Positions 238 through 17,402 of a stretch of 64,000 bases of DNA are shown here, in pieces. The notes below the pieces were generated by a model, which made no database searches, had not been told where the DNA came from, and was given only the letters and a program-made list of their open reading frames with translations. The stretch's first letter is position 1. Each line of letters begins with the position of its first letter. This DNA is from a candidate division FCPU426 bacterium (GTDB taxonomy: Bacteria; Oederibacteriota; Muellerivitia; Muellerivitales; Muellerivitaceae), in assembly GCA_963796105.1 (NCBI GenBank), contig CAWCKJ010000004.1:32001-96000 (forward strand), written 5' to 3'. The position numbers and the translations under genes were made by a program.

Positions 238-480
238 TTACTTTGCGGCAGGAGCTGCAGCATCCGGGGTGGCAGCAGCGGCATCCTTCTTCATCATCTT
301 CTTAGTCATTTTCTTCTTCGTCATCTTCTTCTTACTCATTTTCTTCTTCATCATCATCTTATCAGACTTCATAGCAGCACCCGGGGTAGCAGCAGCGGGA
401 GCAGCAGCATCATCAGCCAATGCCACACCGACTGCACCCAAGAACAACATGGTCATCAAAACAGCGAATAAACGCTTCAT
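238..480 (-). CDS. Small secreted Met/Lys-rich low-complexity protein
   Basis: Signal peptide (MKRLFAVL...ALA), AGGAGG RBS, KKMxKK repeats flanked by Ala/Pro-rich segments. Confidence 0.75.
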   Translation of the reverse strand: MKRLFAVLMTMLFLGAVGVALADDAAAPAAATPGAAMKSDKMMMKKKMSKKKMTKKKMTKKMMKKDAAAATPDAAAPAAK

Positions 481-919: not shown

Positions 920-1751
920 TTGAGCCTGAACTCAAATAGTTGGGGGAATAAGCCGGAAAAAATCCTTCATTGCACCTTCTTATGCCTCGCTTTGTCCGTG
1001 GTTTCTTGCCGGGTCCAAATCACCTACCCGCACGCCCCTGGAACCCTTTTTATCCGCCAGCAAATCTGCGACCTCAATGATTTCAAGTCGGGCTTCTTCA
1101 AGCGGGAAAACGACCTTAGGGGACATGGCTTCATGGCCTACAGTTTCCACCGGGACCCAATTGACCCCAAGACCTATATCCTGTCCTTTAAATGCGGGGA
1201 CTTGGAAAAGGCAGTAGAATTCATCCGTTCCTCCAATTTCTATTTCTCCTGCGTGGGTGCCGGTTTGGGCCAGCCGCTGTTCTGGGCCGGAACGGACGTG
1301 GTGGGCCTTCCTTACCCGAAACTCACCCCCTTGGCGGGCGGTATCGCCTTGGCCCGCTACGAGGTACGGGATTACGATACCTGGAAACGAGGGTGGGATG
1401 TCGAATACGGCGGTAATAGGGGCCGCCCCAAAACAGAGGGTGGACCCCAAACCCTCAGCCTGCACCGGCTTGAGGGCAGGCCCGAGGCCGTGATCGTGGT
1501 TTACGAAGTGACAGATATCCCCCAAGCGCGGGCCTTTTTGGACTCCGAAGCCGAAAAAAACGCCAATAGATACCCACGGGCAAGCCCGTGGTACTAAAAT
1601 CAAAATTCAAGCTTCGCTTGCCGTGCTTTCAGCACGGTGGCCTTTCACCCACGGGCAAGCCCGTGGAACTCAAAGCGCCGGATTAGAAACCACTGGGGTC
1701 ACCCGCCAGGCCCTCTGGTTTGGAACAAATTTGGAAGAAGGAATTTTTTAA
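920..1751 (+). pseudogene. Secreted/lipoprotein with two ferredoxin-like (cyclase/ABM-type) domains, interrupted near its 3' end
   Basis: Removing 1565-1679 restores the frame ...EAEKNA|GLETTGVTRQALWFGTNLEEGIF*, which parallels the end of the first domain (GAGLGQPLFWAGT). Confidence 0.65.
1565..1679. mobile_element. 115-bp non-autonomous element with twin subterminal hairpins (IS200/IS605-like, PATE-type)
   Basis: Two direct copies of hairpin ACCCACGGGCAAGCCCGTGG (1572-1591, 1647-1666); CGCC at both junctions; interrupts an ORF. Confidence 0.65.
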
Positions 1752-1831
1752 ACTTTCTAAATTTTATTAAAAGTTACATCTCTTGGTTATTAATCATTTA
1801 ACGAGTAGGTTGCATAGGGTCCTACATCATC

Positions 1832-1859
1832 TGTCCACGTCGGGTCCCCGTAAGGAACA
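1832..1859. repeat. Palindromic cassette-boundary site S1 (degenerate right arm)
   Basis: TGTCCACGTCG-GGTCCC-CGTAAGGAACA. Confidence 0.8.
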
Positions 1860-1891
1860 ACCCCCATTCTCTTAATTCCGGTTAACCCCGG

Positions 1892-2695
1892 TTAAGGGCG
1901 CGTGATACGCTTTAATTCAAAGACGGCTTTGGCGGGCCGGGTGTAGTAGTTCCCGTCCCCATTCGTGTCCCAAGTCGTTTCGATGCTGTCCTCTTCCATT
2001 TCCAGGGAATTGCCATCGCCCGTCAGGGTGTAGGAGAAGGTATGAGCAAAGGTTTGGTTCCCCATCCTCTGGATGACTTCGGGGGGCAAAAGATTAGAAA
2101 CCGAAGTCATGGGGTAGTAATCGGTATGGGCGATTTTATTGCCATCGCCCGTAAAGGTAAAAGTGGTGGGGGGCATTTGGGCCCATTGCACTCGATAGCC
2201 GCCTTCCGCACGGGTAACCGTCATTTTCTGGTTCAGCAGGCCCATAGCATCAGGCGGCGGGGATTGAATACAGAGCCACTCGCCCGCAACGCTTTTGGCG
2301 GCCTCCGCAGCCACGCTTTTTTGGAGCATGTTCATTTCCCAATTGAAGGACTGGATGCTATGGATAATAGAATCTCTTTGGGCTTGAAGGTTTTGTTTTT
2401 GAACTTCGGTTTGTTGGTCTTCGGTTTCGGTGTTAAATGAGATGATTTGAGAATTGAATTGTTTAATTTTTTCCAACAGCGCAGACCTTTCCTGATTGAA
2501 CCTGGCGCTTTCATCCGCCGGTATCCCCTTCGGGGGCGGCTGGAGATCCGGAAGGCCCCCCCCGGGGCTATTCCCCCCCGCTTTATCCGTGGCCGCCTGC
2601 GCCATGCCGCTATTTTGGGCAAAGCCAAAGGAAGCGAATCCCCCCCAAACCACCAACAAAAAAACAAAACTCAAAAGATAAAATGAACGCGCCAT
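1892..2695 (-). CDS. Secreted hypothetical protein with coiled-coil (cassette between S2 and S1)
   Basis: ORF with GGAG RBS before ATG at 2695, signal peptide, helical region then beta-rich C-terminus. Confidence 0.7.
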   Translation of the reverse strand: MARSFYLLSFVFLLVVWGGFASFGFAQNSGMAQAATDKAGGNSPGGGLPDLQPPPKGIPADESARFNQERSALLEKIKQFNSQIISFNTETEDQQTEVQKQNLQAQRDSIIHSIQSFNWEMNMLQKSVAAEAAKSVAGEWLCIQSPPPDAMGLLNQKMTVTRAEGGYRVQWAQMPPTTFTFTGDGNKIAHTDYYPMTSVSNLLPPEVIQRMGNQTFAHTFSYTLTGDGNSLEMEEDSIETTWDTNGDGNYYTRPAKAVFELKRITRP

Positions 2696-2935
2696 AAACG
2701 CTCCAACAAAAGAATCTTTGAATTTAAAACAGATTACCCGTTTTTCCCATGAACCCCATGGATTCAGGGCCAAACCCCATTCCAACCCGTTCAACCGGTA
2801 GAACTAAAGTCGGCACGATCAGATTCACCGTTAAGATAAATATCAGTTAATTGTCCTCAAAATTTTTAAATTAGTCTCTGACATGAATCATAAATTGAAT
2901 TCTGTGGTTAAATGCCGTTTATAGCCTAAAATAAT

Positions 2936-3675
2936 CGTCCACGAGTAGAGTAAAGCACTGGCGCGCCTCCGGTTGCCCGGAACGTTTCCAGCGCCTTCTC
3001 GTCAAACCGTACGTGCGGTTTTCCCGCATACGGCTTTCCCTGAACGTTCGCCGAAAGCTCTTCGCCTGTTCCTTTCGGTTCAGGCTTACTCTTTCCCGCT
3101 AGTCTTGAAGCTGGTTCCAGGGCTTGGTCCTTCAGGAGTTCCTAGGCTTTCGCCAATCTCCCGCCCGTCCCCTTTATAAGACGCTGTTCAGGCCAAGCCC
3201 CTTCGCTCCCCCAAGGTTTTGCTGTCCTTGGAATCCACGCTAGTATGGGCTTGTCCGACCCCCATAGGATCTCCCTGTCATTTCGCCGCTTAGACTTATA
3301 GGCAGGTACCTGGTACTTCCCTATGGGTCTCCCAAGTTCCGTTGTTCTCCGTCTGGACGTGTCGCCCCTGTTACCCCGGAGGAGTCTCATGCGTATTTCT
3401 GGCTCCCGCATGGGATACTGGTTTCCCCAAGACCCGAAAGGGTCACCCTCCTCAATCTCGACGTTACGAGGTTACACCTAGGTTCACACGTGTTACGACC
3501 CGTCCTTTCGCATCGGGCGCTTTACCGCCCTTTGTCGAGCCGCTTGAACCTGGCAGGTTACCCCGCCCGATTCGGCTCCCTGCTACCAGACTGCCAAATT
3601 TTGTCTGGGTCGGCACTTTTCAGCCGACTGGATGAACAACAGCTTTCTTGGCGCGCCGGGTCCCCGTCGAGGACA
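2936..3675. repeat. Palindromic site S2, split by group II intron copy 1
   Basis: Joining 2936-2944 and 3657-3675 gives CGTCCACGACG-GGTCCC-CGTCGAGGACA. Confidence 0.88.
2945..3656 (-). ncRNA. ORF-less group II intron, copy 1 (712 nt)
   Basis: 5' GCGCG, domain V AAGCCGTATGCGGGAAAACCGCACGTACGGTTT (about 3004-3037, AGC triad), DVI hairpin ending ACTCTAC; EBS1-like loop CGGGUC (3431-3436); no RT ORF. Confidence 0.93.
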
Positions 3676-3739
3676 ACTTTATTCGACCTGCTCAAACCAA
3701 ATCAACTTTGAGTGATATGGTTCCAAGCTCTGAAGGGGC

Positions 3740-4171
3740 TTAGCCGGGAGGGATCGGATCTTTCCCGGCCAGGTAAATGACGCAAGTTTCGTAGTCTTGG
3801 ATGGGCTGGATTTGCACGGTCATGTTGTAAACTTCCCCGCCCACCTTGAGTTTCATCTTTCCGCTCTGCGGCTCCGTTGTTTTCGTGAGATCCATGAAGG
3901 CCATTTTCTTGAACCTGGAGATCAGGTGGCGGTAGCGGAACCAGGGCAACTCGGTGGTCCCGGGAACGAATTCCCCTTGGACCCGCCAGCGCAGCCGCAT
4001 CTTGGATTCGGCCCAGGGTTCCACCACGGGCCGGATTTGGATTTCGCTCGCCCCGGCCAGGATGGCTTCATGAAGAAGGGCAAAACTAAGCTCCCCCATC
4101 GAAGGAAAGGGCTTCTCATTCTCTTCGGGGCTTTCTCCTTCCTGGCTGGCATCCCCATGAGGGTCGTTCAT
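3740..4171 (-). CDS. Stand-alone PilB/GspE N-terminal (N2D-like) domain protein, no ATPase domain
   Basis: ASEIQIRP..MRLRWRVQG..LISRFKKMAFMDL..PQSGKM resembles the PilB/GspE ASDIHIEP..RxRxDG..ISRIKIMAxLD..PQDGR pattern; no Walker A. Confidence 0.75.
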   Translation of the reverse strand: MNDPHGDASQEGESPEENEKPFPSMGELSFALLHEAILAGASEIQIRPVVEPWAESKMRLRWRVQGEFVPGTTELPWFRYRHLISRFKKMAFMDLTKTTEPQSGKMKLKVGGEVYNMTVQIQPIQDYETCVIYLAGKDPIPPG

Positions 4172-4214
4172 GGCCGCTTATTTCTCCTCATTTTCCGGGT
4201 AATTCAAGGCTGCC

Positions 4215-4493
4215 CTATCCCGCGAACTGGCTCCGGTAAACAGCCTTGATGTGCGCCAATCTCTCTTCAAGCTGTTGGGTTTTCTCGGCCAGCCCCAACT
4301 CACGCGCCAGGCCGATGGCATCTCTCAAATAATCCTTGCAATCGCTGTATTCGGTCATCGGGTGGCTGGAATCGTACATTTGGTCATAGGCTTCCTCGGC
4401 CTTTTTCTCCAAAAACTCCAATTGCTCTTGCGGGGTCGGTGGCATGCCTAAAATCCTGGTTTTTATTCTTCCGTGAATGAAAGCGGGGTTCAT
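4215..4493 (-). CDS. Small helical hypothetical protein
   Basis: 92-aa ORF (start may be 4445) with plausible helical composition; starts just after site S3. Confidence 0.65.
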   Translation of the reverse strand: MNPAFIHGRIKTRILGMPPTPQEQLEFLEKKAEEAYDQMYDSSHPMTEYSDCKDYLRDAIGLARELGLAEKTQQLEERLAHIKAVYRSQFAG

Positions 4494-4538
4494 CCATTCC
4501 GGTTGGGCTTATCATAGTGTAATAAACCTCGTTTTCAC

Positions 4539-4566
4539 TGTCCAATGCGGGTCCCCGTCGTGGACA
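4539..4566. repeat. Palindromic cassette-boundary site S3
   Basis: TGTCCAATGCG-GGTCCC-CGTCGTGGACA, 10 bp after the stop codon of 4577-4960. Confidence 0.9.
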
Positions 4567-4576
4567 AGGACATCTC

Positions 4577-4960
4577 TTAAAAGAACTGTGGAGACCCTAA
4601 TAATCCTAATACGACATGTAGGATCAGGTAAGTCATTATGAACAGCACGGCGAACTTATACTTTTTCTGTCGTATGAACCGGAATAGAAAATGGAGTAAA
4701 AAACTGTAATACAAAAAAAATAAAACCCAAATAATTTCGGCTAAAATAAATGCCACATAAGAGTTAAAGCCTCCCTCGCTATATACAAAGTTGCTTATCC
4801 AGCGAGACAGCAACATGAAAGGTCCGAGTATAAAAATACCGATCCAGTGAAGAAATCCCTGTATTCTCAGCTGATCAATGAAATAGGCAATAGCACCTAA
4901 TGAAAAAGCGACGAGAAAATTAAAATACTTAAATTCTTTAAGCGTTTTTAAGATCTTCAA
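4577..4960 (-). CDS. Low-GC small multi-pass membrane protein
   Basis: 127 aa, about 4 hydrophobic segments, GGAGG RBS before TTG. Confidence 0.7.
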   Translation of the reverse strand: MKILKTLKEFKYFNFLVAFSLGAIAYFIDQLRIQGFLHWIGIFILGPFMLLSRWISNFVYSEGGFNSYVAFILAEIIWVLFFLYYSFLLHFLFRFIRQKKYKFAVLFIMTYLILHVVLGLLGSPQFF

Positions 4961-4997
4961 ATTGCCTCCCTATCGCGGACAACTTCTGGCAGAACGG

Positions 4998-6494
4998 TCA
5001 ATTGCCTGGTTTCTGTAAATCTTCCTGCAATTCCTTCGCTTTCCGGGCGGCATATTCATTTCCTTGGTTGGCCGCCAGTTGAAACCAGTAGAGAGCTTGC
5101 TTGGTAACATCATTGACTTCGGACTCATAGTAGAGACTACCGGCCATTGCCACGCTTTCAATCTCATATAGATCCCCTAATTTAACCTTGGCTTCGACGC
5201 TTCCCAAATTCGCGGCTTGGGTATACCACTCGATGGCTTTTTTCTCATCATTGCCCTTTTGAGGATCGTTGTAGTAATCCCCATTTTGAATGTCCTGTTC
5301 CACGGCGGTGGAAGGCGATGTGTTGGTTCCATTGGAGGTATCCCCGCTGGAATTTTCCCCCGAGGACGCCGTTACATTGGCCAAATCCGACAATTTGTTC
5401 GTTGCCATTTGGTCACCGTTCGCCGAGGCCAATTGGTACCAATATTTCGCCTTTCCGAGGTCCTTACCGACCCCTTTCCCATCTGCATAACATAGGCCCA
5501 TCATCAATTGGGCAAAACTGTTCTTCGGGTCCTGATCGGCCGCTTTTTGGAACCAAGGAATAGCCTCGGAAAACCTATTTTTTCCGTAAAAATGGTAACC
5601 CAACTGTGCTTCGTGATAAGCATCCCCCGCTTTACGCACCAAACTGACAGCCTTCGCCTCATCCGGGTTCACACCCCATCCATTCAGATAAAACATTCCC
5701 AAATTCCCGGTCGCCATCACATGCCCCTGGTCGGCGGCTTTTTGAAGCCACTTCACGGCCTCCACGTTGTCCTCCTTGGCCCCCTTGCCATCGGAATAAG
5801 CCAAGCCAAGTGAGTTCTCTCCGTCCGCATTGCCTAGGTCCGCCGATCGGTTGAAATATTGAAAAGCCTCATCATCCTTGCCCGCCTTTTGGGCTTCCGT
5901 GCCCTTTTGGAAAAAGGCTGCGCCATCCTCCACTGTCGTTGGACTACTGCTAGTTGGGGGAGCATTCGAAGTGGGCTCGGACGCGGGCTGGTTTGAACCG
6001 TTCGCGGAACTTTCGGGAGGAAAGGGGGTTGTGCCTGAATTGATCTTTGCCAAAGCCTCATCGGCCTTTTTATATCCTTGGGCCGATGCTTTTTGAAGCC
6101 AATCCTGGCCTTCTTTCTTACCCGAAGCGATCTCGGCGTCCCATTTTTCAATTTGCTTTTGATCTTTTTGCGTCCATTCCCAAGCCGTCATGGCCATTGC
6201 CGCGTCATAAAGGTAAAGCCCATAGCGATACTGGCCCTCGGCGTTCCCCTTTTCCGCGGCAACGCTATACCATTTACCCTCGTCTTCATATTTTTTGATC
6301 TTGTTCGCGGCCTTTGCCCTCTTGAGGGCCACCTTCGCCGAAACGGAGTGATCGATCTTAACTCGGGAGGGCGTCACGGTCGCCGTGGGAAGTTCGCTGT
6401 CCGCAGGCACATACACATTCTGGGCCAACACGGAGCCTCCAAAGGCCGCAATACCAAGGATGGCCCCTAAAAATATTCCAGTTCTTATTTTCAT
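4998..6494 (-). CDS. Secreted Sel1-repeat protein
   Basis: Signal peptide and multiple SEL1 motifs (A...LG..Y..G.G...D...A..W.QKAA.QG). Confidence 0.92.
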   Translation of the reverse strand: MKIRTGIFLGAILGIAAFGGSVLAQNVYVPADSELPTATVTPSRVKIDHSVSAKVALKRAKAANKIKKYEDEGKWYSVAAEKGNAEGQYRYGLYLYDAAMAMTAWEWTQKDQKQIEKWDAEIASGKKEGQDWLQKASAQGYKKADEALAKINSGTTPFPPESSANGSNQPASEPTSNAPPTSSSPTTVEDGAAFFQKGTEAQKAGKDDEAFQYFNRSADLGNADGENSLGLAYSDGKGAKEDNVEAVKWLQKAADQGHVMATGNLGMFYLNGWGVNPDEAKAVSLVRKAGDAYHEAQLGYHFYGKNRFSEAIPWFQKAADQDPKNSFAQLMMGLCYADGKGVGKDLGKAKYWYQLASANGDQMATNKLSDLANVTASSGENSSGDTSNGTNTSPSTAVEQDIQNGDYYNDPQKGNDEKKAIEWYTQAANLGSVEAKVKLGDLYEIESVAMAGSLYYESEVNDVTKQALYWFQLAANQGNEYAARKAKELQEDLQKPGN

Positions 6495-6565
6495 ATTTCC
6501 CTCCCTGGTTTTATTTTAATCTCGAGATCACTAGTTCAACCGAATATTTAGAGGCCGAAGTTTTT

Positions 6566-6593
6566 TGTCCACCAGGGGTCCCCGTCGTGGACA
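6566..6593. repeat. Palindromic cassette-boundary site S4
   Basis: TGTCCACCAGG-GGTCCC-CGTCGTGGACA, 8 bp after the stop codon at 6602. Confidence 0.9.
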
Positions 6594-6601
6594 AGGTTGA
6601 G

Positions 6602-6829
6602 CTATTGTCTCTTCCGATACCCAACACCGCTTTTGGGTTTCCCTGTGAGAGCATAACGGAACAAATAAATTCCTACACCAATTGAAACAGCGGCTGCAAA
6701 ATAACCATAAATAAGTAAAGAATGTTCTATTTCGCAATAAATGCTATATACAGCAAATGCAAAACACACCAAACTCATTCCAAAAGCTTCCCACTTGTTA
6801 AATTTATAAGAAAATTCTAATTTTTTCAT
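6602..6829 (-). CDS. 75-aa two-TM membrane protein filling the cassette between S5 and S4
   Basis: GGAGAGG RBS then ATG at 6829 (MKKLEFSYKF...); the longer ORF call starts inside the intron. Confidence 0.75.
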   Translation of the reverse strand: MKKLEFSYKFNKWEAFGMSLVCFAFAVYSIYCEIEHSLLIYGYFAAAVSIGVGIYLFRYALTGKPKSGVGYRKRQ

Positions 6830-6843
6830 ACCTCTCCAAAGGC

Positions 6844-7583
6844 TGTCCACGAGTAGAGTAAAGCACTGGCGCGCCTCCGGTTGCCCGGAACGTTTCCAGC
6901 GCCTTCTCGTCAAACCGTACGTGCGGTTTTCCCGCATACGGCTTTCCCTGAACGTTCGCCGAAAGCTCTTCGCCTGTTCCTTTCGGTTCAGGCTTACTCT
7001 TTCCCGCTAGTCTTGAAGCTGGTTCCAGGGCTTGGTCCTTCAGGAGTTCCTAGGCTTTCGCCAATCTCCCGCCCGTCCCCTTTATAAGACGCTGTTCAGG
7101 CCAAGCCCCTTCGCTCCCCCAAGGTTTTGCTGTCCTTGGAATCCACGCTAGTATGGGCTTGTCCGACCCCCATAGGATCTCCCTGTCATTTCGCCGCTTA
7201 GACTTATAGGCAGGTACCTGGTACTTCCCTATGGGTCTCCCAAGTTCCGTTGTTCTCCGTCTGGACGTGTCGCCCCTGTTACCCCGGAGGAGTCTCATGC
7301 GTATTTCTGGCTCCCGCATGGGATACTGGTTTCCCCAAGACCCGAAAGGGTCACCCTCCTCAATCTCGACGTTACGAGGTTACACCTAGGTTCACACGTG
7401 TTACGACCCGTCCTTTCGCATCGGGCGCTTTACCGCCCTTTGTCGAGCCGCTTGAACCTGGCAGGTTACCCCGCCCGATTCGGCTCCCTGCTACCAGACT
7501 GCCAAATTTTGTCTGGGTCGGCACTTTTCAGCCGACTGGATGAACAACAGCTTTCTTGGCGCGCCGGGTCCCCATCGTGGACA
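6844..7583. repeat. Palindromic site S5, split by group II intron copy 2
   Basis: Joining 6844-6852 and 7565-7583 gives TGTCCACGACG-GGTCCC-CATCGTGGACA. Confidence 0.9.
6853..7564 (-). ncRNA. ORF-less group II intron, copy 2
   Basis: Appears identical to 2945-3656 (offset 3908 bp); same insertion point in the palindrome. Confidence 0.93.
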
Positions 7584-7813
7584 AGCCATTTCCCTTTTAT
7601 TCACTCAATTTTACGCCTGCATGAATAGGAGCGGGAGGCAATATTTTCTAAAACGAGCGCCAATTTATATGGGCAAAGCCCAAATTGGCGCGAGAAAAAG
7701 GGGGCACCTGGTCAAACGCCCACAAGGCGGTTGGCCACGGTTTGGTGTGCAAATAGCAAAAAGCTATTTGCAACGGGGGCGAAGCCCCCGCGCGGGGGGG
7801 CTGCCCCCAGGCT

Positions 7814-8245
7814 TTAAACTTCACCCCCTTCCTCGATGTAAACGTCCTCGCAAACTTCGGATTCACAAGCCAGGCTGTCCATGTTGTGAATTTCTCCCGC
7901 TTCCTCCTCCGTCCGAGCTTTGTAGACTTTCCTTCCCTTGAGGGTCCAATAGACCGTGAAATTTCTTAACCCCTGGGCCTTCTTAACCGGGCGGTGTTTT
8001 ATTTCCCTCAAGGCAGAAATAACCCGGTGAAGTTCTTCCTGCGCCGTTTCCAGGGCCTTAATTACGTTGGCCGTAATATCCCTGGGGTTTTTCCCGTCTG
8101 CCGTTTCCCGGATTTCCTCGACTATGAAAGCGGCCAAGCCGTCCCCGGTGTCTTTCTCCCCCTTTCTAATACGGTCTATAAGCCCGTCCGGATAGGCGGC
8201 GTTAGCCGCCTTTAAAAGTTTGTTGGTGTGTCTGTTGTTAAGCAT
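7814..8245 (-). CDS. Hypothetical protein downstream of ardC
   Basis: ATG overlaps the ardC stop (TAATG), AGGAGG RBS; MLNNRHTNKLL... Confidence 0.7.
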   Translation of the reverse strand: MLNNRHTNKLLKAANAAYPDGLIDRIRKGEKDTGDGLAAFIVEEIRETADGKNPRDITANVIKALETAQEELHRVISALREIKHRPVKKAQGLRNFTVYWTLKGRKVYKARTEEEAGEIHNMDSLACESEVCEDVYIEEGGEV

Positions 8246-8639
8246 TAAGCAACCTCCTTGTTTTGTTCTGCATCTACGGGTTTCAGAAGAAAATCGACGG
8301 CCTTTTGGGCCTGGGAAACGGCGGTCATTAGGGCCTTTGAATCGTCTTTGATTGCTTCGATCCAATTGGCGATATAAGAGGCGTGGTTGGTCTTGTAGGG
8401 GATGCCGACATGGGCGCAAAGGATTGCGGCCCCAAACTCGGCCACAAGCTCCTCGGCGGCATATTCCGGGGAACCGAAAAGGGAGCCTTTAACCCGGTCG
8501 AGCCTGGCCTTTCCTCCGGTCCAGTGGGTGTTATGCCGATATCGGCATAAGACGCAAAATGCCGAATCCCGGATTATGCCGAATGGACCGACGTTTCCCT
8601 TGAATTGATAACCCCGGCCCATTCGATGATTCGGCATAA

Positions 8640-9638
8640 TCAAAGCGCCTCCAAGAACGCGAGTAACTTGTCGTCAGGACGATACCGCCCCGGTTTACAG
8701 GCGATGGCGGCTACACTAGACAAGGCTTTTTCTTTGAGTCGGAGATCCGCATGCATGTAGACCTGAGTGGTTTCAACGGATTCATGCCCAAGCCAGAGAG
8801 CGATTACCGATTGGTCAACCCCGTGTTGCAACAGTTCCATGGCTGTGCTGTGCCGCAGGACGTGAGGACTGACCCGCTTGCCGACAAGCGAGCTACAGTA
8901 CGCTGACGCTGATAGCGTGTGTTTTTGGACGATGTACTCAAATGCGTCACGACTCATCCGCTCTCCACGTATAGTCGGGAAAAGAGGACTGTTTTCAGCG
9001 CCTTGATGTTCTTTCAACCATGCTTCGAGTAGCTTTGCGGTTTCCTTTCGAAGTGGGGTGCACCGTTGTTTACGCCCTTTGCCTTCACACCGAATGTGAG
9101 CACCCTCGCCAAGCACGACATCTTGGGGACGAAGATTGATCAATTCGGATGAGCGAAGCCCCGTTTGTAATACAACCAGCAGGATCAACAGGTCACGACG
9201 GCCAACCCAGGTTTTCCGATCAGGTGCTTTGAGAAGCGCTTCAATCTCCGGCCGATCCAGAAAATCCACGGTTCGCCGGACATATCTTTTGCTCGGCATG
9301 GCCAGGATTTTTTGACAATGGAGCATATAGGCCGGCTCGCTCATTGCCACATAACGGAAGAAGGAGCGAATAGCTGTCAAACGAACATTCCTGCTACGCG
9401 CCGTATTCTTCCGGGCCGTTTCGACGTGATGGAGAAAATCACCCACCAGCCCCACATCCAAGTCTTCAATCCGAAGTTTCGTTGGGTCCTTGCCACGCTT
9501 TTCACTGGCGAAGCGCAGGAACAAGCGGAAGGTGTCGCGGTATCCGGCAATCGTATTTGGGCTCGCCTCCATCTGGTTGCGCAGACGGTCGGTAAAAAAG
9601 TGTTGGAGCATTGCCGGGAAGGTTGATGGGTTCATCAT
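8640..9638 (-). CDS. Tyrosine recombinase (RitC-type)
   Basis: TGLRSSEL, GKGRKQR, HVLRHS, LGHES..TT..Y motifs. Confidence 0.93.
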   Translation of the reverse strand: MMNPSTFPAMLQHFFTDRLRNQMEASPNTIAGYRDTFRLFLRFASEKRGKDPTKLRIEDLDVGLVGDFLHHVETARKNTARSRNVRLTAIRSFFRYVAMSEPAYMLHCQKILAMPSKRYVRRTVDFLDRPEIEALLKAPDRKTWVGRRDLLILLVVLQTGLRSSELINLRPQDVVLGEGAHIRCEGKGRKQRCTPLRKETAKLLEAWLKEHQGAENSPLFPTIRGERMSRDAFEYIVQKHTLSASAYCSSLVGKRVSPHVLRHSTAMELLQHGVDQSVIALWLGHESVETTQVYMHADLRLKEKALSSVAAIACKPGRYRPDDKLLAFLEAL

Positions 9639-10579
9639 CGCACCTCCACAGCCGAGTTACCGGTTACCCGCCGGGAGGCAAGTTCCAGCAATTCGGGAAC
9701 GGCCTCGATATACCAGTAGGTGTGCTCCGGACCGGAGTGACCCAGATATGTCGTCAGTTTGATCATTTCCCGGGTGACATCCTTGCCCGTGCGATACCAA
9801 CCCACCATCGTGCGTGCGGCGAAGGTGTGCCGGAGATCGTGGAGGCGCGGGCCTCGTCCATGTTTGCAGAACCGTTGGGGAGTCCGTAACCCAATTCGCT
9901 GGCAAACAACCGCGAAGTTGTAGCGCGCGCTGCAATCGTCCGGACGGTTTCCTTCCTCCGTGGCAAAGAAGGATTGCGGAACGAAGCCCACAAGCTGGTC
10001 GCGTTGGATAACGTAGGCCTTCAGGTGTTTGGAAACGTCCTTGGTGATGGGTACCGAGCGCGTTTTCCCACCCTTAGCACGCTGGATGGTCAAGACACCG
10101 CTGTCCAAATCAACATCATCGTTGTCCAGTCCAAGCGCTTCACTAACCCTGAGACCAGTTATTGCGATCAACCCAAAGAGGGTTGAAAAGGTCAACGCCC
10201 GTATGCCGCTCATGGAGGGCAGGCTGGACGCGGTTTCGACAATCCTTTTGATCTCTTCGTCGCTGTAGATGTGGGGCTTTGGACGGCGAAATCGATATGG
10301 AATAAGCCCCTTTGGTGGTACTTCATGCGCTGGATCAAGGCCATGAAGCCATTGCGCAAAAAGCCGGATCATTGTTAGGCGGGCGGCCCAAGTCGGACGG
10401 TGGGCCTTGCCAAAATCCTTTTGCCACTTCAGGAACAACTCGGTGGATATATGGTTAGCGCCTTGTTGTTCGGCGAAGGCAATAAACCTGCGAAGCACCC
10501 TGGCTGTCGTAGTGAGGTCAAAGCCCAGGCCGCGACGGATCATCAAATAACGGTCGAGTTCTTGGGATAGGTTGCTCAT
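9635..10579 (-). CDS. Tyrosine recombinase (RitB-type)
   Basis: TGLRVSEAL, HDLRHTFA, LGHS..HTYWY; 4-bp overlaps with neighbours. Confidence 0.93.
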   Translation of the reverse strand: MSNLSQELDRYLMIRRGLGFDLTTTARVLRRFIAFAEQQGANHISTELFLKWQKDFGKAHRPTWAARLTMIRLFAQWLHGLDPAHEVPPKGLIPYRFRRPKPHIYSDEEIKRIVETASSLPSMSGIRALTFSTLFGLIAITGLRVSEALGLDNDDVDLDSGVLTIQRAKGGKTRSVPITKDVSKHLKAYVIQRDQLVGFVPQSFFATEEGNRPDDCSARYNFAVVCQRIGLRTPQRFCKHGRGPRLHDLRHTFAARTMVGWYRTGKDVTREMIKLTTYLGHSGPEHTYWYIEAVPELLELASRRVTGNSAVEVR

Positions 10580-11826
10580 TTCGCACCTACCTCAACCGGC
10601 CATGGCTGGGCGACCGAGCGCAAACCTTCAATATCGACCTTGGCGTAGATCATCGTTGTTTGCCTGGATCGGTGGCGGAGCACATCGCCCACTTCGGGAA
10701 GTGATGATCCATGCTTCATCAGTTTCATGGCCAGGCTATGCCTCAAAATGTTGGCGCCTACATATCGGACAGGAGGCCTCAAGCCGGTCTTGATAAAGGC
10801 TTCTTTCAAGACCGAGTTGAGGATTTCCGCACCTTGGAAAGGTAGTCGCGGGGCGCGCTCAGTGACGAACAATACCCTGGATGTCGTCTTGCGGTCGCGT
10901 CGGATATAGTCGGCAAGGACTTCACCAACGTCCTGAGGAAGAGGCATCCGGTCATGCAACTGTCCCTTGCCCCGAATGAGAATTTCGCCCTTGCGCCAGT
11001 CGATATCGTCGATTTGAACCGTGATGACCTCGGTGGGCCGCAGTCCAAGCCTGGCCATAAGAAGTATCATGGCGTAATTGCGTCGTCCGACAGGCGTATC
11101 TTTCCTGACGGCAGCAATGAGAGTTTCCACCTGTTCAGACGTTAGATGTCGTGGAAGGGATTGTTGGTGGGGTTGGGCGATCCGGGGGACACTGGGCGCC
11201 AGATTGGTTGCCGTTTTACCGCTTTTGAAAAGAAACAGCAGAAAATTCCTCAGATGTGTTGCCTGTGTCTTGTCCCGGAAAAGCTTTCGACGCGATAGCT
11301 GGAATTGAATGTACTTGATGATACCTTCTGGCGTAATTCCAGAAAGGTTATCCTTCCCGTCGGAGAAAAGGAATTTGAGAAATTGATTGGCGACATACCA
11401 GCAACGAAGGATTGATTTCTCGGTGAGCCCTCGCTGACGGCGGAGATACTCCTCGTAATCCATCCTCAAACGAAGGCGTGGAGCATCAGGGATCTTCGGG
11501 GCCAAGACAGGTTTTACCAAACCTAACCCCGCCAGGAATTTCATGAAATTCCTGGCCATGAAGTCGGCCTTTTTTTTCCAGGGTTCTGATGAATCAGAAC
11601 CCTGGAGAAGCTTTATGGCCTCATCCTCGTCAAGATTTTTTAGTTTGACTCCGGCTTCCTTCACGGCCCGATCAAGAACGGCGATACAAACTACGTATTG
11701 ATAAATTCTCGCCTGGCTGTATCCCTGGTTTTCCAGAAAGTTCTGGAACCGTCCCAGGTGCTTGCTAAACGGGCCATTGACCGTTTTGACCTTGGTACAA
11801 ACCCGCCCTGCTATAGATGATTTCAT
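10576..11826 (-). CDS. Tyrosine recombinase (RitA-type)
   Basis: LGLRPTEV, ILRHSLA, LRHRS..TT.IYAK; GGAG RBS before ATG at 11826. Confidence 0.92.
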   Translation of the reverse strand: MKSSIAGRVCTKVKTVNGPFSKHLGRFQNFLENQGYSQARIYQYVVCIAVLDRAVKEAGVKLKNLDEDEAIKLLQGSDSSEPWKKKADFMARNFMKFLAGLGLVKPVLAPKIPDAPRLRLRMDYEEYLRRQRGLTEKSILRCWYVANQFLKFLFSDGKDNLSGITPEGIIKYIQFQLSRRKLFRDKTQATHLRNFLLFLFKSGKTATNLAPSVPRIAQPHQQSLPRHLTSEQVETLIAAVRKDTPVGRRNYAMILLMARLGLRPTEVITVQIDDIDWRKGEILIRGKGQLHDRMPLPQDVGEVLADYIRRDRKTTSRVLFVTERAPRLPFQGAEILNSVLKEAFIKTGLRPPVRYVGANILRHSLAMKLMKHGSSLPEVGDVLRHRSRQTTMIYAKVDIEGLRSVAQPWPVEVGAK

Positions 11827-12657
11827 CTCGTTGCTCCTTTTGACTGAATTTCCGACTAAGGAGCAAAAATAGCACAGACAAATCCGCCATCTGGTGTAAG
11901 TCAACCTAACTTCGATGGCCATTTCTACACCTCAAGCAGAGACCAATTCGCGGGTTTTATGCCGAATGAAATTTTCATTTTCTGATGAAAAACGGGCTGA
12001 CTGGAATCGGTTCGGCATAATCCGGGATTCGGCATTTTGCGTCAACTCGTGGAAAAGAGTTCCGTAATAGCCTTCCGTTGTTTTGAAAGCTTCCTTGAAG
12101 GGGAGGGTGATTCGGTCGGTCGCCGGGCTGTAAAAAGCTTTGTCCTTAACCTGGTCGAAAAGTATGGCGGCTCCCGAGTTCTTTATGATTTGGTCGGCTT
12201 CATCGACGTTCTTAACCTGGTTCCCGGTGAATTTCTCCTTCAAGTGGTCAAGTCCCTCGATCTGGTCAAGGTTGAAAACGTAGTGAAGGCGGATAAAGGG
12301 AAATGTTTTGGATAATTTTTTTCCCTGCTCGTCCCTTTCCTCCGTTGTCTTGCTCTTGATCTCAAAATAAATAATCTCGGTTCCCTTTTCCCCTTTCTTT
12401 ACGGTCCCGCCTAATGTCTTGGCTTGAAGAAAAGTCATCCATGCGGGGGAAGAGTAGTTTTCCTGTTGGCGCTTGTATCCCAAAAGAATCAAGTTCATCC
12501 CCTGGTAAATGTGGGAGGAAGAACCATTGACGGAAGGAACGAAAAACCAAGGCTTGTCCCATGGCATGACGCCCTTTTCCATGTCGGCGGTAATTTTTTC
12601 GGCTACTTCTTCGACTAAGTTTGAAAGCTTTTCTTTTGTTTCCATTGGTTTCCCCTT

Positions 12658-12783
12658 TCAGTTAATAATTTCGTTCTGGATCATTTCCAAGGCCCGGTCA
12701 ATTTCAGATTCGGGAACGGGGTGTTGCTTTACTTCCTCAAGGATTTCTTTTGTCTCTTTGAACTTCTTCATAAATTCGTTCAT
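12658..12783 (-). CDS. 41-aa acidic helical peptide upstream of ardC
   Basis: MNEFMKKFKETKEILEEVKQHPVPESEIDRALEMIQNEIIN with AAGGAG RBS; below the ORF-track cutoff. Confidence 0.55.
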   Translation of the reverse strand: MNEFMKKFKETKEILEEVKQHPVPESEIDRALEMIQNEIIN

Positions 12784-13401
12784 CTAAGGCTCCTTTTTTT
12801 GATCTGCTCTTCGGGAACAGCCCTCCGGGGGCCGCCCTTCACAAATAGGCCGAGGAACGAGGCCGGTGAGGGCGGACACCGAGGGCAAAGGGGTTTATGG
12901 ACAAACGGAGGGCGCAAGCCCGGAGTGCCGGCCAGCAGGTCTTTCTCGTGAAGGAAAAGTTTGCGCGGTAGGGCTAGGCGAAGCCGACGCCCGTCAGCGA
13001 AACCGGAAGACGAGAAGGGCAATCTTGGCCCGACGGCCAGGAGGGCCGCCCTGGGAGGATGGAGGCGGCGTTAGCCGCTTTGACTCACGGGAAAGTTCCC
13101 TGGATCGGTCATCGTTGGGGTTGCCAGGGGGTTCTCCCCTTGGCTAGGGATGGGAAATGGGAAGGGGCTTTTCATCCCTTCCCCTGGGGGGTCCGGGGGA
13201 CGGCTCGAACGAGCCCGCCGCCCGGGCTAGGTGGGGCCAGGGGAGGGTTGTTCCTCCCTGCTTTAAAAGAAATACGAGTCCCGACATTCTGGAAGCCCAC
13301 ACGTCCCCGATAGGGGCGGCGGGGCTTCCTCCCCCGCGGCCAAAGGTCGCGGTCGGGACGAGATAAAGGGGACCGGGGGCAAAGCCCCCGGTTGCGAGGC
13401 T

Positions 13402-13626
13402 CTATCCCGCCTTATTTACGAATTGAATATCCTCTTCAAAAATTTCTTCACAGTAGGGGCAAAATCCGGTGTCCGGGTCGAGTGAAAAAGTTTTTTTACC
13501 ACATGAAAGGCATTCCCCATTACAGGCGGGGCAATCCCTCCCCTCCTTTTCGGGGTCCCAACCGTGGCCACACTTCCACGGGGAAAAAGGGTAATGAAGA
13601 TGTGGTTTCACTTTGATCTGGTTCAT
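13402..13626 (-). CDS. Small Cys-rich zinc-binding protein
   Basis: CPAC, CLSC, CPYC motifs; ATGA overlap with radC stop. Confidence 0.65.
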   Translation of the reverse strand: MNQIKVKPHLHYPFSPWKCGHGWDPEKEGRDCPACNGECLSCGKKTFSLDPDTGFCPYCEEIFEEDIQFVNKAG

Positions 13627-14114
13627 GCAAGTAACCCGGCGTGGCGGAATGAAAAATGGCTCTCGTGAGTAACAATGATGTGGTCGTGAACGGTGATTCC
13701 CATGGCCCGGCAAGCGGTGACAATCTGGCGGGTTAATTGGCGGTCGCCTTCGGAGGCTTCAAGGCTTCCCCCTGGGTGGTTGTGACTTAGCAAAATTCCG
13801 GAGGCGTCAAGCTCCAAAGCCTTCTTGATTATTTCCCTCGGGTAAACGGCGGTATGGTCAACCGTTCCTTCGCCTCCGCAAACAACATCAAGAAGATGAT
13901 TCCGATGGTCAACGTACATCGTTAGAAAACATTCCCTCTTTTTCCCTCCAATGTATTTGCGGAAATATTCGGCGGCGTCCCCTGGGCCACTTAGGGCGGG
14001 TCCCCTTTTGTAGTCGGCTCGTGCTTCTGCCCAAGAAACCACCGGAATGGTCGGCGGGGGTAACACCATCAAATCAAATTTCAACTGCTCCTGCTTTCTT
14101 GTGTTTGTTCTCAT
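13623..14114 (-). CDS. radC: RadC-like JAB domain protein
   Basis: GTVDHTAVYPREI, HNHPGG...S..D, VHDHIIV motifs. Confidence 0.92.
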   Translation of the reverse strand: MRTNTRKQEQLKFDLMVLPPPTIPVVSWAEARADYKRGPALSGPGDAAEYFRKYIGGKKRECFLTMYVDHRNHLLDVVCGGEGTVDHTAVYPREIIKKALELDASGILLSHNHPGGSLEASEGDRQLTRQIVTACRAMGITVHDHIIVTHESHFSFRHAGLLA

Positions 14115-14496
14115 ATGCCCTGCTCCTTGATTTATTAGAGGAGAGAGCACCCTCCGGGTGCGCCCCCTCACAAAATCCTTGGGGGCGCAAACGGAGCGAA
14201 AAGAGGTGTTGGCTATGGAAAACCGATGCCGGGGGAAAGTGCGTCGTTTGTTTAAGCATTATTGGGGGAAAAGACAAAACATCCGTGAGGCCGGAATCGC
14301 GAGGAACGAAGCCCGGCCGTTTTGGCTTTTAGGCGCCGACCGACCCCAACGGCGTAGCCGCCCCCGGATCGGTTTTCTTCCATATTGACTTAAGTTGTGG
14401 GAGTTACGGGGGGATCTTCCAACCGGGCTAGGGATGGGATATGGGAAGGGTCAAGTCGATCATTTAAAAAAACTACGAAAATAATTGTCTAAAAAA

Positions 14497-15753: not shown

Positions 15754-15758
15754 AGCCA

Positions 15759-17402
15759 CCTGAATTTTGCGCCTAATAAAAAAACCATCTAGGAAACCAT
15801 TATAGGATAAGGGTTGCGAAGCCAACTCATCCTAAAAGAGGGTCCCCCAGATGGTGAAACGTCAAGATACGCCTCAGAAATCAAACCCGCAAGTCCAGAA
15901 AAAAGCCAATCGAAACGGGAGAATCGCGCCCAAGATTACGGCCAATACTCCCGTAGGTATTTGCGAAGACCGCCTAACAGCTTTTGGCGGATTGTTGGCA
16001 TTGGCGAAGATGTTCGACCTTCTTGATTTTGAGCGGGAATTCAAAAAACACTATGCCGCACCTAAACGCCTTCCGAATTTGGGCCACTACCGGATGGTAA
16101 GCGGCATCCTAATGCTTCTTTTCATCGGGTTCCAAAGACTTGGCCATTTTGCCTACCTGCGGGGTGAGGTCATGCTGTGCGGTTTACTGCGGGTTCCCTT
16201 GTTGCCGGTAGTGACAACTTTTTGGAGATACCTGAGGTCGCTGGGGATCGGGCAGTCGGCATCGTTGCTGAATCTGAGTGGGGCGTTACGGGCCAAGGTT
16301 TGGGGACAGGTGAAATATGCCCCCAAGAAGGTGGAGATCAACATCGATACCACCACCGCAACGGTCTACGGAAATATCGAGGGAAGCCGAAAAGGATACA
16401 ACCCCAAGCACCGGGGCAAGAAGGGACTGAGGCCCATTCTGTGTTTTCTCCAGGAAACCCGGGAATATTTGTGCGGAACCCAAAGACGCGGAACCACCCT
16501 TAGTTCTGAGGAAGTGGCCCGCCAAATTAGACAATTCCGGCGACTCTTGCCGTCCTGTGTCCGGACGATTCTGGTGCGCGGTGACGGTGAAATGATCGGC
16601 TGGGAAAGCGTGAAAGCCTGTGAAAAAGAAGGGTTTTCTTTCATCTTCGGGAACAAGCGGCATGACCCGCCTTTCACGAAAAAGGGTTGGTACCGCCATG
16701 GAGAACACGAATACAACGAATGTGTCCATCAACCCATAGGCTGGCAACAACCAGTCCGGTTTGTGGCGATGAGGACGCTGGATGAAAAAGCGCGGGAGAA
16801 ACAATTGAGCCTTCCTGAAATGGAAGGATATGTCTACCGAATCTTCGCGACCAACTGTCTGGGAGCACCCCATCGGGTGGTTGAGGAATACGACCTGCGC
16901 GCGGATGTGGAAAACCTGATTGGTGAGGCGCAACGGGAGGGGTTATTAGCAATTCCCTCTAAGAGTTTCCAAAGCCACCATGCTTTTTTCCAGATCGTGA
17001 TGCTGGCTTACAACCTCTGGAGGTGGATGAAACTAATGGTGGGCCATTGTGGAAAAGAAAAGCGACCGGGAAAGAAGCCACAGGAGAAGGAACAGATCAC
17101 CATGCCGGACCATACCCTTCGGATCGCACGTTTGAAGATGCTCTTTGTAGCCGCCCGAATCCAGTATCACGGCCATCGGGATGTGGTGAGGTATTCAATC
17201 CATGATGATAGGACAGCGGGCCTATTGGGTTTCCTCAAATACCTTGATCGAAAACGATTGGAAAGACCCAGGGCGGCCTAGAAGTGGCTTGGTGCAAAAA
17301 ATTCTTTGCACATAAGTTCACTTCTGATGAAAATGGCCACTGTCGGGTCCCGATTCAGGCCGATCTGGCCACGGAATCGGTAAACTCGGTGCAAAATTCA
17401 GG
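15759..17402 (+). mobile_element. IS1380-family insertion sequence
   Basis: Terminal IRs CCTGAATTTTGCGCC / GGTGCAAAATTCAGG; 5-bp target duplication AGCCA (15754-15758, 17403-17407). Confidence 0.92.
15851..17281 (+). CDS. IS1380-family DDE transposase
   Basis: LTAFGGL, INIDTT..VYG..EG..GYN, VRGD, Y..R..VENLI.E motifs. Confidence 0.92.
   Translation: MVKRQDTPQKSNPQVQKKANRNGRIAPKITANTPVGICEDRLTAFGGLLALAKMFDLLDFEREFKKHYAAPKRLPNLGHYRMVSGILMLLFIGFQRLGHFAYLRGEVMLCGLLRVPLLPVVTTFWRYLRSLGIGQSASLLNLSGALRAKVWGQVKYAPKKVEINIDTTTATVYGNIEGSRKGYNPKHRGKKGLRPILCFLQETREYLCGTQRRGTTLSSEEVARQIRQFRRLLPSCVRTILVRGDGEMIGWESVKACEKEGFSFIFGNKRHDPPFTKKGWYRHGEHEYNECVHQPIGWQQPVRFVAMRTLDEKAREKQLSLPEMEGYVYRIFATNCLGAPHRVVEEYDLRADVENLIGEAQREGLLAIPSKSFQSHHAFFQIVMLAYNLWRWMKLMVGHCGKEKRPGKKPQEKEQITMPDHTLRIARLKMLFVAARIQYHGHRDVVRYSIHDDRTAGLLGFLKYLDRKRLERPRAA

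Follow-up and report, generated by a model that had tools for sequence, protein, structure and literature searches.

An array of gene cassettes divided by co-oriented 30-bp palindromes in a candidate division FCPU426 bacterium, and the short serine recombinase that likely exchanges such cassettes

The window, by which we mean the whole analysed stretch of 64,000 nucleotides, carries a row of genes separated by copies of a palindromic site, two of which are interrupted by group II introns, and next to it the backbone of a mobile element. The features are as follows, with the evidence for them in brackets where it applies:

1831..1860, plus strand: site S1, with a variant right arm (30-bp palindrome, weight matrix)
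1892..2794, minus strand: cassette gene without Pfam or PADLOC match; the ATG at 2695 is the likely start, and the N-terminus resembles a signal peptide
2935..2944, plus strand: site S2, left part before the intron
2945..3656, minus strand: ORF-less group II intron, 712 nt, on the cassette-gene strand (Rfam RF02005, RF00029)
3657..3676, plus strand: right part of site S2, comprising the core and the right arm (weight matrix)
3740..4171, minus strand: cassette gene for a 143-aa protein that corresponds to the N-terminal part of T2SSE family members
4215..4493, minus strand: cassette gene for at most 92 aa, matching no family
4538..4567, plus strand: site S3 (mismatch search, weight matrix)
4577..4960, minus strand: cassette gene for a 127-aa protein with three hydrophobic stretches, in a segment of GC 0.35
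4952..4983, plus strand: decayed extra site, 14.9 bits (right arm retained)
4998..6494, minus strand: cassette gene for a 498-aa protein with Sel1 repeats and an N-terminus like a signal peptide
6565..6594, plus strand: site S4 (mismatch search, weight matrix)
6602..6829, minus strand: cassette gene for a 75-aa protein with two hydrophobic stretches, in a segment of GC 0.35
6843..6852, plus strand: site S5, left part
6853..7564, minus strand: ORF-less group II intron, identical to the one in S2 (Rfam, sequence comparison)
7565..7584, plus strand: site S5, right part (weight matrix)
7585..14450, minus strand: mobile-element backbone, with ArdC split by a triple tyrosine-recombinase insertion, and RadC

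The five sites were found where the first-pass annotation had placed them (S1 at 1832, S2 at 2936/3657, S3 at 4539, S4 at 6566 and S5 at 6844/7565), in one shared orientation. Conservation extends beyond the 28-bp core described there to 30 bp, as a 14-2-14 palindrome around TC, TTGTCCACGACGGG-TC-CCCGTCGTGGACAA. S2 and S5 are each interrupted by a 712-nt insert (2945-3656 and 6853-7564), and the two inserts are identical. Four bounded segments had also been described and are present, but S3-S4 consists of two units, divided by the decayed extra site at 4952-4983, whose left arm overlaps a Shine-Dalgarno-like sequence and the start of the 127-aa gene. Matches to the site with at most three mismatches numbered 2 in the window, compared with 0.00 in 100 shuffles, and a weight matrix derived from the matches in this genome returned 54 at 20 bits or more, compared with 0, 0 and 0 in three block shuffles. 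A further site lies at C4:29547, about 2.4 kb to the left of the window start.

As had been noted, the cargo ORFs (6/6) lie on the minus strand, their stop codons fall close to the sites (8-63 bp from the adjacent 28-bp core; 8-64 had been claimed), and GC content is uneven among segments, from 0.35 to 0.53. The description of this cargo as mostly envelope or secreted proteins suits four of the six ORFs, which have signal-like or membrane-like hydrophobic stretches, but not the other two; cargo in other arrays also includes toxin-antitoxin pairs and small enzymes. None of the window's own cassettes was found as a cassette in the other genomes examined. The 143-aa T2SSE-family gene has homologues (69-70% at the DNA level) that adjoin fabF-like genes in G011 and G022, with no site within 1.5 kb, and this one cargo gene with resident, site-free chromosomal homologues represents a possible capture event. 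Defence cargo was considered and rejected, PADLOC matching 4 of 109 proteins, in each case by way of a generic domain (methyltransferase, propeller, sigma-54 activator, intron RT).

The identical inserts in S2 and S5 are group II introns (RF02005 at 70.6 bits, RF00029 at 47.8 bits) inserted inside the left arm, with an EBS1 loop complementary to the site core. Loop and target base change together between the window intron and a relative in G002 that encodes a 434-aa reverse transcriptase; the 712 nt hold no such ORF, and two related intron reverse transcriptases gave no tblastn match in this assembly. Group IIC-attC and other integron-associated introns likewise insert into or beside cassette recombination sites, but the window intron differs from them in its position in the left arm through a 6-bp EBS1-core match, in the loss of its reverse transcriptase, and in lying on the cassette-gene strand and not on the opposite one (PMC7923331).

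The backbone at 7585..14450 resembles, in patches, the DNA upstream of a short serine recombinase gene (discussed below) in G001, G042 and G045; this gene is missing from the window's ArdC/RadC backbone. Two other recombinases were rejected as candidates. The triple tyrosine recombinase (8640-11922, 1 kb from S5) interrupts ardC, and G002, which has 63 sites, is without such a tandem among 8 matches; a multi-copy integrase of about 365 aa, with a small upstream HTH gene, has two copies near arrays in opposite relative positions and nine other loci that are site-free.

The motif is not confined to one array. It is present at 21 places in this genome, in 56 copies, 47 of which are clustered (random mean 7.8, maximum 20 in 1000), forming about a dozen rows of cassettes of which the window array is one; its abundance is limited to this order, and viral contigs gave 0 site matches. 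Over 809 site contexts, 541 neighbouring site pairs are co-oriented and 22 inverted, 358 of 385 segments have their largest ORF on the strand opposite the site, and 253 of 382 segments hold a single ORF. Random orientation and fixed gene order, which the first-pass annotation had named as the contrary pattern, were thus not seen, given these orientations and the identical cassettes among different neighbours described below. REP- or terminator-like repeats are rejected on the clustering, on the co-orientation and on a T-rich tail at only 9 of the 56 sites. A role of the left arm as a -35 promoter box was also rejected (34 of 747 flanks have a -10 box at 16-18 nt, fewer than the roughly 78 of the shuffles; in the window, promoter-like matches using the left arm number 3 of 6), as was one of the site as a ribosome-binding site, the CCTC variant not being generally nearer to starts (14 cases). 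Inner arm positions 9-12 are the most variable, the outer box 8-13 is conserved, and strong conservation ends at about 14, with only an A/T bias and no sequence motif 16-24 bp from the site centre; conservation of the core is inflated because the search patterns required it.

Gene-cassette shuffling by a site-specific system unrelated to attC, as first proposed, is supported by identical cassettes among different neighbours and by a break inside the site. Cassette pairs with different neighbours number 13 at 99% identity or more and 103 more at 80-99%, cassette and site pairs not being independent of each other; G045 supplies five of the six within-genome duplicates, several of them close to the end of a contig, and these may represent strain variation. 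Linkage places the break at positions 16-19 of a 32-bp frame, in the central TCCC. Among 27 site pairs with identical left flanks, none differs at positions 13-19 and one differs at 20, while the 21 pairs with identical right flanks differ frequently at 1-12, once each at 13, 14 and 15, twice at 17 and three times at 21; the differences at 17 and 21 are unexplained by a clean central cut without later mutation or repair. The two sites flanking a cassette have the central TC in common in 364 of 389 cases and the 6-bp spacer in only 264. Of the two site models put forward at the outset, the serine type with a central dinucleotide (13-2-13) fits better than the 11-6-11 tyrosine type. Circle joints and empty-site reads were absent from four runs in which the organism's share was small and cover patchy (five sequencing runs were located, all with small shares), and the loci checked had no terminal repeats.

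The best candidate for the enzyme is a clade of serine recombinases of 275-283 aa without zinc-ribbon and coiled-coil domains. It consists of 19 clusters of that length at 74% identity or more (next match 61%), is monophyletic in a quick tree (SH-aLRT 100), and has PF00239 and PF07508 in all 19 members, a conserved YxRVSS motif and a fold that matches serine integrases among the top Foldseek matches. The proteins stop just before the zinc-ribbon CxxC of their 507-513-aa relatives, and dN/dS of 0.08-0.16 in the six unsaturated pairs of ten indicates purifying selection. Every intact gene (5/5) ends 6-34 bp before a site. An intact enzyme occurs in only 5 of the 32 genomes of the order, all among the 13 with at least 20 sites and none among the 19 site-poorer ones; tail remnants adjoin sites in G000, G006, G019, G022 and G046, but, as a point against the enzyme, the site-rich G011, G016, G023 and G043 have neither gene nor remnant. 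No recombinase had been identified in the window, and no intact copy of the candidate is present in the entire assembly, which retains only a short tail remnant beside another site; the window array therefore looks orphaned.

Full-length relatives of the enzyme, of which this genome encodes one of 510 aa, have no site nearby, 21 viral loci with enzyme relatives have none either, and plasmids gave no match to the enzyme at 1e-40. The idea that the short enzyme is the product of a full-length gene truncated when it integrated was rejected because a stop codon precedes the site in 5/5 copies and the missing zinc-ribbon/coiled-coil half is not nearby, being absent from 13 loci around intact or remnant copies. 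The extent of the site matches the footprint of the recombinase domain, which covers 13 bp and touches bases at positions 9-11, the zinc domain binding at 16-24 (PMC3783163). An LI integrase with its coiled coil deleted is promiscuous, which favours the short enzyme as the candidate, but is inefficient in intermolecular recombination, which speaks against it (PMC5499577); in the literature searched, no report of natural serine recombinase activity without the zinc domain was found.

We consider it probable that the window holds an array of cassettes split by co-oriented 30-bp palindromes and that the family's cassettes are exchanged at the palindrome centre, likely by the short serine recombinase, of which this assembly has no intact copy. 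An enzyme dimer would bind each site through its recombinase domains, over about 14 bp per arm, cut around the central TC and exchange strands by rotation; the linkage data are compatible with strand exchange at the central dinucleotide by the short enzyme. With neither zinc-ribbon nor coiled-coil domain, the attP/attB distinction would be absent, and therefore any two sites could recombine. Direct repeats would give rise to an excised circle with one hybrid site, able to re-enter another site, and the asymmetric TC would preserve cassette orientation. The enzyme likely rides an ArdC/RadC mobile element and would act in trans; where a genome has lost it, as here, the arrays left behind would be CALIN-like orphans. 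Group II introns target the sites. A wider reading, to which we incline with moderate confidence, is that an integron arose independently a second time: a large serine integrase that lost its zinc-ribbon and coiled-coil domains, now non-directional for one 30-bp site, would run an order-wide cassette pool, riding the ArdC/RadC element and serving dozens of orphan arrays in trans, and several group II intron lineages would target the site and may help make cassettes.

Shuffling with no dedicated enzyme at present, by short-homology recombination or natural transformation at the core of sites that are recombinase relics or hairpin repeats, seems improbable to us. It would agree with the lack of an intact enzyme in 27 of 32 genomes and with one intron lineage that inserts just outside an arm, like hairpin-targeting introns, and, whatever the mechanism, exchange within a 30-bp repeat common to both partners would likewise appear to fall in the best-conserved stretch. 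However, the enzyme is under purifying selection, lies at a site in all five intact copies and is confined to genomes with at least 20 sites (5/5 among these 13, 0 in the 19 poorer); hairpin-type arm covariation is weak, the observed value being reached in 20 of 1000 shuffles within sites and 50 of 1000 within cassettes, and few sites (9/56) have a T-rich tail. Less probable still are dif-like modules on whose 11-6-11 sites the order's single chromosomal Xer-like tyrosine recombinase would act. The gene for the latter has a palindrome of its own directly upstream, with dif-type inner TATAA/TTATA (the pattern was found at 12 of 30 loci, and this genome has one copy), and none of its 29 scored loci has a cassette site within 1.5 kb. 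The supposed 6-bp spacer differs between the ends of 125 of 389 cassettes, its positions 14-15 travel with the left neighbour, and the inner arm positions of the cassette site are variable, whereas those of dif are highly conserved (excerpts of PMC6449649). In favour of Xer are the range of the gene, which is that of the sites, its presence where the serine enzyme is missing, its single copy in 23 of 24 family genomes and one other genome of the order, with outside homologues at only about 33%, and a 28-bp core readable as 11-6-11.

Unusual attC sites served by an integron integrase encoded elsewhere are scarcely credible, even though the segments usually carry one gene each with its stop near the site, the cargo includes ORFans and toxin-antitoxin pairs, and group II introns occupy sites, all of which resembles integron arrays. 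Crossover in attC occurs at the site edge (the R' box), whereas the break here is central, and a RYYYAAC...GTTRRRY pair surrounds only 2 of 56 sites (background 1%), in line with the initial view that these are not attC sites. The best of 15 tested proteins scored 129 bits against an integron-integrase cut-off of 265 bits. A search with TIGR02249 at 1e-30 matched 0 of 41 genomes, but left the control genomes blank as well. The site is also sequence-conserved and fixed at 30 bp, whereas attC varies in sequence and is conserved in structure (excerpts of PMC9024848).

Under the serine recombinase reading, the likeness to integrons, sedentary chromosomal integrons and CALINs (PMC9024848) nevertheless includes co-oriented arrays of mostly single-gene, exchangeable cassettes, a cargo of ORFans, toxin-antitoxin pairs, and GNAT and HAD enzymes, the existence of arrays that no recombinase gene adjoins, and the insertion of group II introns into sites. 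The system departs from them in having no attC boxes, a fixed, sequence-conserved 30-bp site, a central crossover and a serine enzyme candidate. It also has many short arrays per genome, and its cassette genes face the recombinase gene, so that, unlike in integrons, there is no Pc-like promoter at that end. With large serine recombinases (LI/A118, Bxb1, phiC31, SPbeta) the candidate shares PF00239 and PF07508, the fold and a site built around an asymmetric central dinucleotide (excerpts of PMC3783163 and PMC5499577), and the short clade is nested among full-length members at 49-61% identity; it differs from them in the absent zinc-ribbon and coiled-coil domains, in that no directionality factor was seen, and in one symmetric 30-bp site type with dozens of copies in place of one attP/attB pair. 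Acinetobacter pdif (dif) modules, served by XerC/XerD, similarly have accessory genes between short palindromic sites and an enzyme encoded elsewhere, but their sites are inversely oriented according to a title cited in PMC6449649 (excerpts), in contrast to the direct repeats here (541 against 22). The cassette site is also unlike dif in sequence, and the host Xer-like gene adjoins a different palindrome.

Our literature search found no description of this system; to our knowledge, such cassette capture has been described only for tyrosine enzymes (IntI/attC and Xer/pdif), and the search found none other. The system would be an integron look-alike made from unrelated parts. With 276 aa and a symmetric 30-bp site, a natural integrase derivative of this kind would put the need for zinc and coiled-coil domains to the test, and the short recombinase could serve as a compact genome-engineering tool. 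If the system is serine-based with unrelated sites, the integron strategy would have evolved twice, which would provide an independent system for two open questions, the making of cassettes and their uniform orientation. The arrays represent an unmined accessory gene pool, likely missed by attC-based tools.

Re-inspection of the window bore out the positions and common direction of the five palindromic sites (S1-S5). The first-pass annotation had given them a length of 28 bp, which did not hold, the consensus being a 30-bp palindrome, TTGTCCACGACGGG-TC-CCCGTCGTGGACAA. Within a 32-bp frame around the site, conservation covers the outer box (positions 3-8 and 25-30) and the core (13-20), and positions 9-12 are the most variable. 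A weight matrix refined on this genome's own sequence gave 54 matches of at least 20 bits, versus 0, 0 and 0 in three block shuffles. At 19 bits, this genome-wide search, which the annotation had proposed, yields 56 sites in 21 places, and 47 of these sites lie less than 7 kb from another (random placement, n = 1000: mean 7.8, maximum 20). Two additional sites lie in or near the window:

Window 4952-4983: decayed extra site
C4:29547 of this genome (G000), some 2.4 kb to the left of window position 1: further site

The array continues leftward, where the C4:29547 site bounds a 4.3-kb multi-gene segment extending to window position 1830. This segment encodes a Lys/Met-rich, signal-bearing protein of 80 aa (window 238-480) and also carries a pair of 62-bp direct repeats, at window positions 8 and 812. 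Outside both site arms, A/T content shows a periodicity of about 10 bp, peaking near 3, 13 and 23 nt; the amplitude is 0.05-0.06 in the flanks of about 745 sites and does not exceed 0.016 in shuffles, a pattern suggestive of DNA bending or an accessory protein.

A 17-base half-site pattern is present in all 32 genomes of the order, with at least 20 copies in 13 of them and some single-copy genomes at chance level. Among other genomes of the phylum, 6/67 have one or two matches, about equal to a reversed control. At least 161 stretches carrying the site were retrieved in a metagenome scan, and none of the scanned viral contigs has it.

We then pooled 809 site contexts from this genome, array regions picked from site-rich relatives (rather than their whole genomes) and metagenome loci, where 541 neighbouring pairs are co-oriented versus 22 inverted. 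In an earlier subset of this pool, the largest ORF runs opposite to the site strand in 358/385 segments and a single ORF is present in 253/382; segments have a median length of about 800 bp, with a median distance of 18 bp between stop codon and site. The comparison of cassette content and order between genomes that had been called for revealed 13 cassette pairs at least 99% identical and with different neighbours, seven between genomes or contigs and six within a genome. G045 supplies five of the latter six, several of them close to the ends of contigs, and these could be strain variants. The neighbours also differ in 103 further pairs (80-99% identical), and both were kept in only one between-genome pair. 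Two cassettes of this genome have counterparts 83-94% identical with both neighbours changed; the window's own cassettes were not found as cassettes elsewhere (S2-S3 segment, searched in the whole order; others, in the fetched loci). A few array sites have the opposite orientation (loci L136:5999, L129:296 and L347:11030), and some of these may mark inverted cassettes. As an account of the near-uniform direction of cassette genes, a promoter in the site arm was tested and rejected.

In the numbers that follow, conservation of the core is inflated by search patterns that demanded it. After removal of flanks belonging to introns, 27 site pairs with identical left and differing right flanks show no differences at positions 1-9 or 13-19, one each at 10-12, one at 20, and commoner ones from 21. 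In the 21 pairs with identical right flanks, differences are frequent at 1-12; positions 13, 14 and 15 show one each, position 17 shows two and position 21 three. Bases 14-15 go with the left neighbour, since an identical cassette in G001 and G042 differs there, and a rare base at 20 goes with the right neighbour. From this linkage on either side, the exchange falls in positions 16-19, on few informative, non-independent pairs; a clean central cut would account for the differences at 17 and 21 only with later mutation or repair. The two ends of a cassette agree in the central TC in 364/389 cases, in the 6-bp spacer in 264/389 and in the 8-bp spacer in 231/389. We are highly confident that cassettes are exchanged at the site centre.

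The 712-nt inserts that split S2 and S5, the two copies in the genome, match RF02005 and RF00029. The inserts derive from an intron encoding a reverse transcriptase (RT) that occupies the same site position in G002 and is 93% identical over 468 nt; a search of this assembly gave no related RT. The intron's EBS1 loop complements the six bases ahead of the insertion point, and loop and target base change together between this genome and G002. The window intron differs from the IIC-attC introns described in PMC7923331 in lying on the cassette-gene strand. The site is a target of three or more group II intron lineages, which insert at different positions (within the left arm, immediately outside it, and in the core), at loci including:

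L105:4046-5341: site-targeting intron
L086:7614-8984: site-targeting intron
L025:7068-8372: site-targeting intron

G045 holds both ORF-less and RT-encoding copies. A contig from a peat RNA library (run X4, matching window 6844-7586) carries an ORF-less intron, approximately 96% identical, in a site whose left and right flanks are both different, and is by itself no sign of transcription.

Pfam matches at 1e-5 were obtained for 29/65 cassette proteins of this genome and G002, among them toxin-antitoxin parts, GNAT and HAD enzymes, immunity-like proteins and a beta-lactamase-family protein. A predicted member of that family (PF00144) lies at L014:4965-6467, in another array of this genome. PADLOC matched 4/109 proteins, all through generic domains. 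Homologues of the window's 143-aa cargo gene stand next to fabF-like genes, with no site nearby, in both G011 and G022, and the gene is absent from the corresponding locus of this genome; a captured resident gene would fit.

A serine recombinase of 276-278 aa adjoins arrays in G001 and G002. Such short enzymes form 19 clusters (275-283 aa, at least 74% identity; next match 61%) and one clade in a quick tree, and end right before the zinc-ribbon motif of their 507-513-aa relatives. Their dN/dS is 0.08-0.16 (6 unsaturated of 10 pairs). The predicted structure (pLDDT 71, pTM 0.44) has serine integrase complexes as its matches; superposed on LI integrase chain 4kis, it gives an rmsd of 3.2 A over 122 columns. 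Intact genes occur in 5/32 genomes of the order, each of them one of the 13 site-rich genomes, and the array-linked recombinase that had been anticipated was found to this extent: all five end 6-34 bp ahead of a site, which in G018 is split by an intron, but neither gene nor remnant was found in site-rich G011, G016, G023 and G043. Remnants of the gene tail adjoin sites in G006, G019, G022, G046 and this genome:

C6:187366-187410: tail remnant, 45 bp, 84%

In 13/17 intact or remnant copies, the 3.5 kb on the side of the gene are free of sites, so that these copies mark array ends, and cassette genes face toward the recombinase gene. No sites were found near full-length relatives or 21 viral relatives, and PF00239 and PF07508 gave no match in five site-rich genomes. 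The relatives present in this assembly (96.8% complete) are all full-length, at 54% and 27%.

According to PMC3783163, the contact area of the LI recombinase domain spans 13 bp and includes base contacts at positions 9-11 from the centre, with positions 16-24 bound by the zinc domain. The site described here has its conserved outer box at a distance of 8-13 bp from the centre; past about 14, it shows no sequence motif. LI integrase without its coiled coil is promiscuous between site types and weak in intermolecular reactions (PMC5499577). The short enzyme would act non-directionally: a cassette flanked by direct sites would be cut out as a circle with a single site and then reinserted, with orientation presumably set by the asymmetric TC. 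We consider cassette exchange by the short serine recombinase probable as a full mechanism; in genomes without the enzyme, passive homologous exchange at relic repeats is possible.

That the order's Xer-like recombinase acts on cassette sites as dif modules (dif features from PMC6449649) appears very improbable: the distribution of its gene fits, but the gene has its own dif-type palindrome and no cassette site adjoins it. This gene (C3:368879-369946 of this genome = L068; L143-L165) is single-copy in nearly all genomes of the family. The palindrome, of 11-6-11 layout, lies directly 5' of the start, with arms that co-vary between genomes and one copy here, and another conserved stretch of non-coding DNA is present 110-170 bp 3' of the gene. 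The arrangement resembles XerS/difSL.

As to the short serine recombinase, ArdC is encoded upstream of and divergently from its gene in G018, G042 and G045, with RadC also in G018 and G045, and the DNA right of S5 resembles such regions in patches. This neighbourhood and patchy likeness argue that the enzyme likely rides a mobile element, and that the backbone of this element, without the enzyme, would border the window's array. Other elements are also present. A triple tyrosine-recombinase element, which we take to be RIT-like, is inserted in ardC (window 8640-11922), with 73% identical relatives on contigs C1 and C16. An IS with a PF13701 transposase (window 15758-17402) is present in the assembly in about 20 near-identical copies. 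A two-hairpin element some 122 bp long (window 1565-1687) has at least five more copies in this genome, and one of its end motifs resembles IS200/IS605 ends.

As the first-pass annotation held, the sites are not attC: against the integron-defining features in PMC9024848, the array is unlike integrons in both attC boxes and crossover position. A search for IntI gave no match, and neither did its control. In a literature search mostly outside subscription papers, we found no serine-recombinase cassette array described. This putative serine-recombinase cassette system would operate in the manner of an integron, and it does not fit the criteria that define integrons, dif modules or large serine integrase systems.
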